Assembly (NCBI GenBank): GCA_963830775.1
Contig: CAWHNT010000038.1
Span: 98,333 to 162,332 of the forward strand
Direction: 5' to 3'
Length of the DNA: 64,000 nt
DNA from: an uncultured Alphaproteobacteria bacterium
GTDB taxonomy: Bacteria; Pseudomonadota; Alphaproteobacteria; Geminicoccales; Geminicoccaceae
Positions 59,025 through 61,358 of the stretch are shown here, piece by piece. Each line of letters starts with the position of its first letter. Position 1 is the stretch's first letter. Under the pieces are notes generated by a model. That model was not told where the DNA came from. It was given only the letters and a program-made list of their open reading frames with translations, and searched no databases. Made by a program: the position numbers and the translations under genes.

Positions 59025-61358
59025 TCACGGCAGGTGGCTGATCGACCAGCCTGTGAACACGGTGGCCAGCATGGAGAGCAGGAACAGGATCCTGGTTACC
59101 TGCTCGACGGAGACGGCCAGCGTGTCGCGCTTGGCCAGACGACATCGGTCGGCCAGCATGATCGATACGATGCAGAGCAGGCAGAGCGTGAAGAAGGCGT
59201 AGAAGAGGTACTCGATCCTGACCGTGTAGCCGATGCTCCCGAGCTGCTCGTCGATCGAGGACAGCAGCACGGCCCCGGACAGTGCGGCGGTGACCGCCAC
59301 GGTGATCTTCTCCTGGACGAGCGCCGCCGAAAAGTAGAGCGAGGCCAGCAGGATCAATGTCATCAGGCCGAGCGGCAGGAGCGTCTTCAGCAGCACGGCC
59401 CAGACGCGGCGGGCGACGTCGACCGTGACCATGAAGCCGGAGAGCTCGCGGTGGCGCGCCAGCCCGACCAGCCGGGGATCGCCCAGCGCCAATTCGGTAA
59501 CCAGGATGTCGCGCCGCTTGTTGACGTTGAGCGGGGCCCATCGGGTCAGGCCGGTGAAGGCATCCGGTGCGGCGATGCTCAACGGGTCATGTGGGGTGGC
59601 AATGGCGGGAAAGAGCGAGGTCGCGGCGGCCTGGCCGAAGCCGCCGGCTGTCGCACCGCCCGATGATGGCGGTGCCTGCCCTGCCGGGCGGCCGCCCTGG
59701 GCGCGCGTGTCCTGGATGTAGACCAGCCGGTCGGATGCCGCCGTGGCATGGAAGAAGCGAACCGCCAGGGTCTGGTGGTCGACCGGATAGTCCCGCAGGT
59801 CGAAGCGGTTCTGGAAGTCGCCGCTGATGTGCCAGAGCCGATAGGTGGTGCCGTCGTCCAGGTCGCCGCGGGCGACGGGCTGGTCCGGCTCGAAGTGGCC
59901 GCGCACCAGCTCGGGGAACTCGATCCGGGCCGGGTCGGCAGCACCGGGGCTGGTGTCGCCGGCAAAGCGCATCCAGAGATAGAGATCGGCCGTGAAGGTC
60001 GACTGCCGGATGTCGATGGAGCTGATGCTGTTCAGGTAGACGCCCGTATAGACGACCTTCTGCAGGCGCGCGTGGATCCCCTGGGCCACCTCGACCACAG
60101 CGCCCGAGCTGATCTCCGTGCCATCGGGGTTCGGCACCGGCACGAGCTGGACCGGCGCCGATTCCAGCCGTCCGGCGTGGAAAACACCCATTCGCAAGGC
60201 CTGCTGCCGACCCCGCTCGGGCGTGAACCACAGCGGGCCGTCCAGGCCGGGCAGGGCATGGACCGGGCTGTCGAGCGAGCTCAGATAGGCCTGTGCGGCA
60301 GCACGGCGGTCCGCCGTCGAGCCGTCGGGGATGGTGGCCTGCACGCTCCGCACAGCGGCGATGGCGAGCAGCGCTGCCTCGTAGCCCTGACCCGAGATGT
60401 AGGTCGGCTCCTTGTCGTACCGGCTTCGGAACCGGGTCTGGAACGCCAGGGTCTCGGCATTGGCGCTGTCGAACAGCAGCGGCGTCACCGCGTAGACCCC
60501 GTCCGAGAAGTAGCCCGGTCGGCGTTGCTCCTCCGGCTCGTTCTCGAAGTGGCGGGCGAAGAACTCGCCGGCGATCGCGTTGGTGCCGAGCACCGGGCCA
60601 CGCACCACCGAGCGGCGCAGGATCTTGATGATCGCCGCGGCTTCGTCGATCGTGGCCAGCACGATGGCCGGGTTCGCCGGATCGGACGCGGCCTCCCGCG
60701 CGGCCTCCTCGGCTCCGGCGACGTCCTTGAAGCTGCGATACGTGGCAGCAAGGCCGAGCCGTGTCGCGGCATGGCGGAAGCCGCCTGCCACCTGCTGGCC
60801 GTAGCTGTCCTCCTTGAGGAGCACGATCGCCGGCGGGGCGCCCAGCACGTAGCGCAGATAGCTGGCGATGGCACCGCCGCTCTCGCCGGTGCTGAAGCTG
60901 CCGCGGAAGAAGGTGGCGCTGTCGGTGAGCGAATCGCCCGCGGCGGTCGTGCCGATGCAGGCGATGCCGCCCTCGGCGAAGACCGGGTTGACGATGATGC
61001 CCATGGCCGTCGTGGCCGGTCCGACCACGACGAGCGCGTCGCCTGCCACGGCCTGCTTCGCCGCTGCCTTCGCCTCCCCCGGCTTGCTGGCGTCGTCGAA
61101 GACCTCGATCTCGATGGACGGGCCATTGCCCTCGGCGTTGGCCTCCTCGACCGCGAGACGGGCGCCCTCCAAGGCACCGCGGCCGTAGGGCTCCAGCGCA
61201 CCGCTCGTCGAGACCACGACGGCGATCTTCGCGTCGGCGGCCTGGAGGTCGCGTGGCGCGCCGGCCAGGAGGGCCAAGCCCGCCGTGAGCACCGCCAGCC
61301 AGCGCGTGGCGTGCCCGGCCCTGCCACTCCCTTTGCGCTCCGCCCCGCACGGTGTCAC
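59025..61358 (-). CDS. Fusion protein: type-I periplasmic binding protein domain plus pentameric ligand-gated ion channel (pLGIC) module
   Basis: 777 aa, GTG start. Residues ~42-400 are LivJ-like PBP (AKIAVVVSTSGALEPYGRGALEGARLAVEEAN). Residues ~434-650 are a pLGIC-type beta-sandwich (VVYTGVYLNSISSIDIRQSTFTADLYLWMRF, FDLRDYPVDHQTLAVRF). Residues ~651-777 form four TM helices with a polar M2 (EKITVAVTAALSGAVLLSSI) and a short M3-M4 loop. Confidence 0.75.
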   Translation of the reverse strand: MTPCGAERKGSGRAGHATRWLAVLTAGLALLAGAPRDLQAADAKIAVVVSTSGALEPYGRGALEGARLAVEEANAEGNGPSIEIEVFDDASKPGEAKAAAKQAVAGDALVVVGPATTAMGIIVNPVFAEGGIACIGTTAAGDSLTDSATFFRGSFSTGESGGAIASYLRYVLGAPPAIVLLKEDSYGQQVAGGFRHAATRLGLAATYRSFKDVAGAEEAAREAASDPANPAIVLATIDEAAAIIKILRRSVVRGPVLGTNAIAGEFFARHFENEPEEQRRPGYFSDGVYAVTPLLFDSANAETLAFQTRFRSRYDKEPTYISGQGYEAALLAIAAVRSVQATIPDGSTADRRAAAQAYLSSLDSPVHALPGLDGPLWFTPERGRQQALRMGVFHAGRLESAPVQLVPVPNPDGTEISSGAVVEVAQGIHARLQKVVYTGVYLNSISSIDIRQSTFTADLYLWMRFAGDTSPGAADPARIEFPELVRGHFEPDQPVARGDLDDGTTYRLWHISGDFQNRFDLRDYPVDHQTLAVRFFHATAASDRLVYIQDTRAQGGRPAGQAPPSSGGATAGGFGQAAATSLFPAIATPHDPLSIAAPDAFTGLTRWAPLNVNKRRDILVTELALGDPRLVGLARHRELSGFMVTVDVARRVWAVLLKTLLPLGLMTLILLASLYFSAALVQEKITVAVTAALSGAVLLSSIDEQLGSIGYTVRIEYLFYAFFTLCLLCIVSIMLADRCRLAKRDTLAVSVEQVTRILFLLSMLATVFTGWSISHLP

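Follow-up and report, generated by a model that had tools for sequence, protein, structure and literature searches.

Can an ion channel of a bacterium be opened by the closure of a solute-binding domain carried on the same polypeptide? This question is raised by a gene on the minus strand, at positions 59025-61358, of a 64,000-nucleotide (nt) stretch (the window) from an uncultured alphaproteobacterium of the family Geminicoccaceae (assembly GCA_963830775.1, contig CAWHNT010000038.1). A preliminary description of the window, made from the sequence alone, had placed here one uninterrupted open reading frame (ORF) of 777 amino acids (aa) that joins a periplasmic binding protein (PBP) domain to a pentameric ligand-gated ion channel (pLGIC). 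The ORF listing contains a single intact 777-aa ORF at exactly 59025..61358, and both peptide strings quoted in that description are present in its translation. The GC content of the region is ~70%, and long chance ORFs overlap the gene (one of 563 aa on the plus strand, the other of 592 aa in a different minus-strand frame); hence, ORF length alone is no proof of coding. Judged by its full-length homologues (E values down to 5e-263) and strong domain matches, the 777-aa frame is the coding frame.

The product consists of a signal peptide, a LivJ-type class-I PBP domain, a conserved linker of ~35 aa and a complete pLGIC subunit (Table 1). The three parts of the preliminary description, namely the PBP, a beta-sandwich and a four-helix module, were all recovered with Pfam and AlphaFold, and the whole-chain AlphaFold model has a predicted TM-score (pTM) of 0.77. 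The domain identities, the fold, the hallmark residues and the conservation of the fusion are directly supported by the results below. We concluded that the gene almost certainly encodes a single-chain bacterial ionotropic receptor that, once exported by the Sec route and freed of its signal peptide, has the PBP domain and beta-sandwich in the periplasm and helices M1 to M4 in the inner membrane.

A pLGIC subunit fused to a LivJ-type domain

The preliminary description had read residues ~434-777 as a beta-sandwich like the extracellular domain (ECD) of GLIC- and ELIC-type channels, followed by a four-helix pore, and had named the Pfam models Neur_chan_LBD (PF02931) and Neur_chan_memb (PF02932) as a check. 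On the query itself this check came back negative, with neither model matching and both scoring below their gathering thresholds. The NCBIfam model LGIC_1 aligned with aa 632-761 of the query (E=3.8e-6, far below that model's cut-off), and a search of the PDB with the query alone gave GLIC over aa 435-546 (E~0.03-0.2) and the transmembrane domains (TMDs) of GluCl and GABA-A receptors (~0.04). Since neither Pfam nor the PDB gave a decisive result for the single sequence, we used a family profile and a fold search instead.

The profile was built from aa 420-777 of the query aligned with 24 homologues (25 sequences). Against the PDB, it matched GLIC and GLIC chimeras with E values of 5e-11 to 3e-8, in separate ECD and TMD stretches (profile positions 17-140 with GLIC 17-153, and 213-347 with GLIC 181-315). 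The TMDs of GABA-A beta3, alpha5 and rho1 scored ~3e-9, and the GlyR TMD was also aligned. When the family members were searched individually, PF02932 matched 20 of the 25 (best E value, 1e-6) and PF02931 matched 2 (at 0.009); some relatives pass the 28.1-bit cut-off of PF02932, for example P0192 at 35.4 bits. The query misses the thresholds because its clade is divergent from models that are dominated by animal sequences.

AlphaFold placed beta strands at aa ~421-650, followed by helices M1 (652-673), M2 (678-706), M3 (711-741) and M4 (745-775). For the channel half, the model had a predicted local distance difference test score (pLDDT) of 80.3 and a pTM of 0.70. A Foldseek search of the PDB with this half returned only pLGIC subunits at the top (E~1e-17; TM-score, 0.6-0.7; ~360 columns), the best being GluCl 4tnw (8.9e-18), followed by GABA-A, GlyR, GLIC (TMt 0.71), ELIC and sTeLIC. 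The reading of this half as a GLIC/ELIC-like sandwich and pore is thus borne out by significant matches of both profile and fold. One detail needs correction: the M3-M4 loop of ~20 aa described earlier does exist as a polar stretch of about that length, but it is modelled as extensions of M3 and M4 that are joined by a turn of ~3 residues.

The N-terminal half had been described as a LivJ-like type-I PBP of ~360 aa, in agreement with two Pfam models that are above threshold and with membership of class I, cluster B (LivJ/HAAT type). Peripla_BP_6 matched aa 44-357 with an E value of 2.6e-30 (106.7 bits; cut-off, 31.7), and ANF_receptor matched the domain with an E value of 7e-9 (35.6 bits; gathering threshold, 25.4). 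Its top relatives in the PDB, by single-query search, are LivJ-type amino-acid binding proteins, and the Streptococcus pneumoniae LivJ structure 4gnr was matched by a family profile with an E value of 1e-32. The full-length AlphaFold model, with a pLDDT of >90 over this domain, has the two-lobe Venus-flytrap fold (Foldseek TMt 0.86 and root mean square deviation 2.7 Å to 4gnr). Closed, liganded structures fit the model better in Foldseek (3td9, 0.85; 4n0q, 0.86) than do open apo structures (1z15, 0.64; 1usg, 0.59).

Are the two halves really parts of one gene? The preliminary description had itself raised the possibility that two separate genes were joined by a sequencing error, and a histone deacetylase (HDAC)-like gene nearby is broken over three frames, so indel errors or pseudogenes do exist in this neighbourhood. 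Against such a join, at least 120 full-length homologues from many independent assemblies (44-58% identity; ~730-860 aa) align continuously across the junction between the PBP and channel halves. We assembled a set of orthologues from the loci of 77 genomic matches plus 5 contig look-ups; with the query, the 60 near-full-length sequences gave an alignment of 61 members that come from several phyla and reach down to ~29% identity. The linker, which consists of short strands and a helix running into beta1, is both conserved and confidently modelled: A401, P402 and Q404 show little or no variation, mean conservation is 0.55 (0.62 over aa 371-410), pLDDT is 84-92, and the motif SAP.QL.P is retained even in distant members. 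The beta-sandwich is not preceded by a signal peptide of its own. We concluded that an erroneous join is refuted by the homologues and the conserved linker, with a negligible chance of being correct.

The closest genomic relatives, 53-55% identical, are from uncultured Alphaproteobacteria and Roseiarcus. The 77 genomic loci belong to several phyla. Within the Alphaproteobacteria, they include Reyranella, Acetobacteraceae (Dankookia, Rhodovastum, Rhodopila and Acidisphaera), Hyphomicrobiales and Roseiarcus; the Betaproteobacteria are represented by Burkholderia and Nitrosovibrio and the Verrucomicrobia by Chthoniobacter flavus, and further loci are from Chloroflexi, Cyanobacteria, Armatimonadota, Ktedonobacter, Acidobacteriaceae and Pseudonocardiaceae.

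We used the channel-half profile to search 1.84 billion representatives clustered at 50% identity. This census gave 2,750 matches at E<=1e-3, 1,042 at <=1e-10 and 245 at <=1e-30. Short proteins among the best 150 matches were considered as candidate unfused close relatives; all those inspected were N-truncated fragments of fused proteins, beginning in the tail of the PBP domain or in the linker. Among these best 150 representatives, the channel module of the query's clade appears always to carry a PBP. Truly unfused relatives, in which a signal peptide leads straight into beta1, were found only at ~25% identity, in myxobacteria. They share the motifs ADFYVWMRF and YPFDxQ and the loop-C GDP motif.

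Several census proteins have a further domain. In P0238, P0245, P0228 and P0257, an SBP_bac_1 domain (PBP-II type) lies C-terminal to the TMD, in addition to the N-terminal PBP-I domain; in P0264, a C-terminal SBP_bac_1 domain replaces the N-terminal one. P0238, P0245 and P0228 are ~1,200 aa long, and P0264 is 839 aa long. Since the C terminus of a pLGIC is periplasmic, the relatives that bear SBP_bac_1 would be channels with a double sensor. In the account of Tasneem et al., PBP-II genes appear solely as operon neighbours (PMC549065).

Other irregular homologues are better explained by the assemblies. In the uncultured alphaproteobacterium MFD01223.bin.1.34 (locus L043), the stop-to-stop ORF that includes the homologue extends ~560 residues past M4, with sequence resembling a P-loop NTPase ("GLSRSGKTVF..."). 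In that place, an ATPase of cytoplasmic type would face the wrong side of the membrane; hence, this ORF is probably two genes merged through a missing stop codon or a frameshift in the metagenome-assembled genome (MAG). In several assemblies, one protein cluster mixes members of 357 aa (P0269, P0270, P0273 and P0274) with members of 776 aa. P0274 lies on a 1.8-Mb contig that also yielded locus L040, from which ORF extraction gave 450 aa. In some MAGs, the fusion gene therefore appears to be split or truncated by assembly indels or by gene calling, and such split genes could mislead surveys into counting "unfused" channels.

Pore, ligand pocket and variable loop

The Pro-loop, the equivalent of the Cys-loop, reads Y524-P525-V-D527-H-Q529 in the query, and P525, D527 and Q529 are each present in 61/61 members. 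In the family profile it aligns with YPFDSQ of GLIC, so its earlier identification as the counterpart of the Cys-loop FPFDxQ region stands. Equally invariant (61/61 each) are R650 before M1 and the beta-sandwich residues W462, Y506, Y547, D550 and W607. In loop C, whose consensus is S.LGDP.L.G, G626 is present in 60/61 members and P628 in 55/61, and there is no conserved aromatic residue. The idea that loop C is conserved for docking of the PBP is weakened by the unfused myxobacterial relatives, which keep the GDP motif.

The M2 helix of the query has E683 at position -1', K684 at 0', T686 at 2', T690 at 6', L693 at 9' and V697 at 13', followed by S700 (16') and D703/E704 (19'/20'). Across the family, 9' is Leu in 58/61 members, 13' is Val in 59/61, 6' is Thr or Ser in 57/61, and 0' is Lys or Arg in 58/61. 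The polar character ascribed to M2 in the preliminary description is evident at 2' and 6' of the query and, for 6', in most of the family. Position -1' is more variable (Glu or Asp in 41/61 members; Ala or Pro in 14/61). An acidic ring at -1' is characteristic of cation-selective pLGICs, and Pro-Ala-Arg is characteristic of anion-selective ones. With Glu at -1', the channel of the query is predicted to be cation selective.

The cytoplasmic mouth of M2 differs among homologues. The cation-type "V-K/Q-E-K" of the query contrasts with anion-like "TPAR", "MPR", "AAPK" and "AGAK"; variants were seen in P0116, P0104, P0111, P0091 and P0103, among them "TPARATV" in P0116 and "MPRVAT" in P0104. This suggests that one orthologous family has both cation- and anion-selective members.

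Does this half still work as a channel? Conservation is 0.73 in the Pro-loop, 0.74 in the M2-M3 loop, 0.74 in beta2/loop D and 0.64 in M2, compared with a mean of 0.52 for the PBP domain; of the other canonical agonist-site loops, loop E has 0.70 and loop C has 0.59. Conservation peaks in the gating elements, which favours a functional channel over a mere anchor. We nevertheless considered a vestigial channel half, the protein being a membrane-anchored substrate-binding protein that feeds an ABC importer or a nonconducting signalling scaffold. The PBP domain is closest to ABC-associated LivJ-type proteins, and homologues are publicly annotated as "ABC transporter substrate-binding protein", and only as binding proteins of branched-chain amino-acid ABC systems. 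These annotations, however, stem from pipelines in which the PBP is the only Pfam domain detected, and they mislabel the whole family. Moreover, no ABC-importer permease or ATPase gene adjoins the channel gene in the window or its homologues in 7 other Pfam-annotated contexts; the only nearby ABC_tran gene is SufC, within a suf cluster. The 9' Leu, 13' Val, 6' hydroxyl ring, Pro-loop and pre-M1 Arg are among the most conserved features of the protein. We consider a vestigial channel half very unlikely.

We compared the PBP pocket with that of Escherichia coli LivJ. We take E226 of LivJ to be a ligand-binding position, in addition to the published contacts. The mature LivJ sequence used for the mapping passed 12/12 checks against published residue numbers, and its length of 344 aa equals that in the PDB. 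With the exception of E226, the list of contact residues was from PMC6983066. Mapping of the lobe-2 positions (Y202 and E226) rests on a weaker alignment, and the mapping of F276 was unreliable and was dropped. The query keeps 3/6 LivJ amino-acid positions (Y58, T117 and Y186), a count that includes the weakly aligned lobe 2, and it has A140, I237 and N260 where Thr, Tyr and Glu of LivJ clamp the alpha-carboxylate and alpha-ammonium groups. Because the query seems to lack the clamps for these two groups in lobe 2, a canonical alpha-amino acid would be a possible but not a favoured ligand.

Pockets also differ among family members. Across the 61 members there are 43 different six-residue pocket signatures, and the combination S/T, S/T, Y/F, D/E is retained in only 18/61; conservation of the pocket positions is 0.48, against the domain mean of 0.52. 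We concluded from the alignment that ligand specificity has probably diversified within the family, and because the pocket varies in this way, a ligand cannot be assigned to the query. Invariant D142 was considered as a cation- or amine-binding residue and rejected, since S. pneumoniae LivJ (4gnr) has Asp at the equivalent position.

The preliminary description had pointed to a Gly/Ala/Pro-rich insertion of ~50 aa in the beta-sandwich of this copy. The insertion is real (aa 551-599) and lies between beta8 (LVYIQD) and beta9, the position of loop F. It is also correct that characterised channels lack such an insert, GLIC covering the corresponding region with far fewer residues. It is not, however, a peculiarity of the query: the beta8-beta9 loop is 11-59 aa long in the 61 orthologues (median, 23), with a composition of 20% Ala, 11% Gly, 10% Ser and 8% Pro, and even longer loops occur in P0110 and P0112. 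On this alignment, the insert corresponds to a loop that varies throughout the family and has become long in an alphaproteobacterial subclade. With a pLDDT of ~30 in both AlphaFold models and a conservation of 0.29, the loop is probably disordered, and in this subclade it might add a regulatory or tethering element.

Proposed gating by the PBP domain and its alternatives

How might such a receptor work? Our preferred reading, to which we assign a probability of about 0.55, is a homopentameric cation-selective channel in which a solute causes the fused PBP to close and this closure controls opening. As in all pLGICs characterised so far, five copies would be expected to form a ring whose central pore is lined by M2, with Leu 9' and Val 13' as its hydrophobic gate. 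A small periplasmic solute would bind in the cleft of the PBP and the two lobes would close. The linker, which is short, conserved and well packed, would relay this movement to the beta-sandwich and from there to the conserved gating interface (beta1-beta2 loop, Pro-loop, pre-M1 Arg and M2-M3 loop), whereupon the pore would open or become strongly biased toward opening. The resulting cation flux would alter the membrane potential or ion content, a fast response that is independent of transcription. PBP-driven gating is supported by the obligate fusion, the rigid, conserved linker and the diversified pocket. Because the pocket varies while the channel machinery is constant, the family looks like one transducer with interchangeable sensors.

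Several points weigh against this reading. The oligomeric state, conduction, ion selectivity and PBP-driven gating are all properties that we infer, as is the "direct solute-gated channel" of the preliminary description, and the query itself, as noted above, does not match either Neur_chan model. Conservation of agonist-site loops D, E and C equals or exceeds that of the PBP domain, and the GDP motif of loop C is also present in the unfused myxobacterial relatives; together, these observations raise the possibility that the beta-sandwich keeps an ancestral site for a ligand or ion. In addition, part of the LivJ comparison (Y202 and E226) is from the weakly aligned lobe 2. Finally, the N-terminal domain (NTD) of DeCLIC modulates kinetics and is not the agonist site (PMC12664993).

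These points favour an alternative in which a small molecule, proton or divalent cation acts as agonist at the canonical beta-sandwich site and the PBP is a modulator or a concentrator. A modulatory PBP would resemble the DeCLIC NTD and the amino-terminal domain of NMDA receptors, and a concentrator would be in line with the proposal of Tasneem et al. that the PBP first concentrates or senses the solute and the ligand-binding domain then binds it (PMC549065). The motifs shared with unfused myxobacterial relatives indicate that the site predates the fusion. On the other hand, the channel module was never found without a PBP in this clade, among the best 150 representatives, and loop C has no conserved aromatic. 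A concentrator would not need a short, conserved, confidently packed linker, and the combination of a diversified PBP pocket with constant sandwich loops fits specificity residing in the PBP. We regard an agonist site in the beta-sandwich as a serious alternative, although less probable than control of opening by the PBP.

A stronger version of PBP-driven gating, in which the clamshell is the sole agonist sensor and directly gates the pentameric Cys-loop-type pore, seems doubtful to us. If it were true, the flytrap-gates-channel logic of ionotropic glutamate receptors (iGluRs) would have evolved independently on a pLGIC chassis, and the family would be a modular bacterial ionotropic receptor toolkit for many solutes, with switching between cation and anion filters.

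Fusions of PBP-I and ligand-gated ion channel (LGIC) domains were described by Tasneem, Iyer, Jakobsson and Aravind (Genome Biol 2004; PMC549065) in Magnetospirillum magnetotacticum and Bradyrhizobium japonicum, and a chemosensory role was proposed for them. The preliminary description was therefore right that sensor-domain fusions were known from comparative genomics, as uncharacterised proteins. Compared by published description, these alphaproteobacterial "ART-LGIC" fusions have an architecture identical to that of the query (PBP-I, LGIC beta-sandwich, 4-TM); the subclade of the query differs in its long disordered beta8-beta9 insert. The architecture has been public since 2004, and the query is an ordinary member that adds no new principle. 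Full-text literature searches found no experimental work on PBP-I-pLGIC fusions, and neither sequence profiles nor Foldseek found a PDB chain spanning both halves, in agreement with the earlier statement that no PBP-fused member is known to have a defined ligand, structure or physiological role.

Among characterised channels, GLIC, ELIC and sTeLIC share the whole-subunit fold (Foldseek E~1e-17; TMt 0.66-0.71), the Pro-loop pattern Y/F-P-x-D-x-Q, the pre-M1 Arg, the 9' Leu and a very short M3-M4 connection, as well as the cation selectivity predicted here from the acidic residue that M2 carries at its cytoplasmic mouth. They differ in having no NTD and a short beta8-beta9 loop, and they are only ~16% identical to the channel half of the query; their agonists (protons, primary amines and alkaline pH) act on the beta-sandwich itself. 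DeCLIC, from Desulfofustis, is according to papers of 2022 and 2025 (PMC9897478 and PMC12664993) the only NTD-bearing pLGIC to have been characterised. Like the query, it has a large extra periplasmic NTD making up roughly half of its mass. However, the two lobes of that NTD were likened by the authors to calcium-binding regulatory domains rather than to a Venus-flytrap PBP (PMC12664993), and the NTD is flexible and modulates a Ca2+-inhibited channel, whereas that of the query is a clamshell of LivJ type, and its linker is packed with confidence in the model.

The fold and Pfam family of the PBP domain are shared with LivJ/LivK proteins (E. coli 1Z15 and 1USG, S. pneumoniae 4GNR, Brucella 4N0Q and Thermotoga 3TD9), and lobe-1 ligand contacts of LivJ (the S79 and Y150 equivalents) are kept in the family. 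Those proteins are soluble and serve ABC importers; in contrast, the PBP of the query is covalently joined to a channel, and importer genes are not nearby. In the iGluRs (AMPA and NMDA receptors), PBP-type clamshells control a channel that is part of the same chain, a logic like that proposed here, as noted in PMC549065 and PMC12664993. However, iGluRs are tetramers whose K-channel-like pore is inserted into a PBP-II domain and is not homologous to that of the query, a pLGIC subunit (expected to be a pentamer) with PBP-I N-terminal to an intact beta-sandwich.

The native ligands and roles of bacterial pLGICs are largely unknown, and GLIC, ELIC, sTeLIC and DeCLIC became structural models for reasons of tractability rather than from an understanding of their biology. 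PBP-fused members have a sensor that can be expressed separately, which offers a route from a defined periplasmic solute to ion flux, and they would show how a Venus-flytrap domain is mechanically coupled to a Cys-loop-type beta-sandwich. For such work the query is a clean target: its gene is intact, its monomer is modelled with confidence, its linker is defined, its filter is predicted to select cations, and its disordered loop could be removed.

Signal peptide, neighbouring genes and minor observations

Table 1. Features of the channel gene, LivJ-equivalent positions of its PBP domain, and neighbouring genes
Feature	Residues (aa)	Position in window (nt)	Strand	Basis or remark
Shine-Dalgarno-like GGGAG		61366..61370	-	7 nt upstream of GTG start; read from sequence
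Start codon GTG (at 61358) and putative Sec-type signal peptide	1-40	61239..61358	-	
Class-I (LivJ-type) PBP domain	41-400	60159..61238	-	Pfam, profile, Foldseek
Conserved inter-domain linker (APVQLVPV...)	401-434	60057..60158	-	Alignment, AlphaFold
pLGIC extracellular beta-sandwich	435-651	59406..60056	-	Family profile, Foldseek
Pro-loop (Cys-loop equivalent), NRFDLRDYPVDHQ	517-529	59772..59810	-	
Gly/Ala/Pro/Ser-rich variable insert, beta8-beta9 loop	551-599	59562..59708	-	
Loop C (tip of beta9-beta10 hairpin), LALGDPRLVGLAR	623-635	59454..59492	-	
Four-helix transmembrane pore domain	652-777	59028..59405	-	AlphaFold helices, profile, LGIC_1
Pore-lining M2 helix	678-706	59241..59327	-	Register from hidden Markov model alignment to GlyR M2
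Stop codon TGA		59025..59027	-	
Equivalent of LivJ Y18	Y58			Family Tyr/Phe 23/61
Equivalent of LivJ S79	T117			Family Ser/Thr 60/61
Equivalent of LivJ T102	A140			Family Thr/Ser 36/61; also His, Glu, Ala, Gly, Asn
Equivalent of LivJ Y150	Y186			Family Tyr/Phe 53/61
Equivalent of LivJ Y202	I237			No aromatic in family under strict co-occurrence test (weak lobe-2 alignment)
Equivalent of LivJ E226	N260			Family Asp 23/61 (weak lobe-2 alignment)
FAD/NAD-binding oxidoreductase		62734-63960	-	Upstream
CitMHS-family (citrate/ArsB-NhaD-type) transporter		61499-62737	-	Upstream
DUF6635 protein		58054-58896	-	Directly downstream; E=6.8e-56
HDAC/acetylpolyamine-amidohydrolase-like gene		~56836-58330	-	Pfam Hist_deacetyl; split over three frames

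The first 40 residues read as a basic n-region, a hydrophobic stretch (WLAVLTAGLALLAGA) and a cleavage site between LQA and A. This assignment was made from the pattern of the translated sequence rather than with a dedicated predictor. AlphaFold models the segment with low pLDDT as a lone helix (aa 15-30), and it is the least conserved region of the family (0.28). A signal-peptide-like N terminus places the PBP domain in the periplasm.

The listed neighbours, including a GlmM gene further downstream, are all on the minus strand, and the channel gene is separated from those flanking it by 140 nt upstream and 128 nt downstream. None of the DUF6635, CitMHS, FAD oxidoreductase, HDAC-like and GlmM genes is adjacent to the homologues at the 82 loci searched with tblastn, and each of the 7 other annotated contexts is different. 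Scans for promoters and terminators near the channel gene found nothing, nor did an Rfam scan of the whole window. We concluded that the channel gene behaves as a stand-alone unit, and its context hence gives no clue to ligand or role. A polyamine ligand was considered because of an arginine decarboxylase/agmatinase pair upstream of the gene at loci L001 and L086, together with the HDAC/acetylpolyamine-amidohydrolase-like gene of the window; this candidate was rejected, since the pair is confined to these two genomes, which are nearly identical and syntenic.

The remaining observations concern other genes of the window. A 433-aa ORF at 53925-55226 (minus strand) has a lipoprotein-like N terminus (...LTLIGGCATAP...) and Gly runs, and it had no Pfam match at E<=0.001. 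In the HDAC-like gene, one frame shift lies near nt ~57245-57255, at the junction of Pfam profile positions 221/224, and a second lies at ~57900-57915, where "...GSIVPPEDH" resumes as "GRGPIERVH" in another frame; the gene is either a pseudogene or affected by assembly indel errors. The Rossmann motif of the oxidoreductase begins only at aa ~111, so its ORF may start earlier than listed or may have been cut by the mechanical definition of ORFs. The coding regions of the oxidoreductase and the CitMHS transporter overlap by 4 nt, and the two genes are therefore probably co-transcribed.

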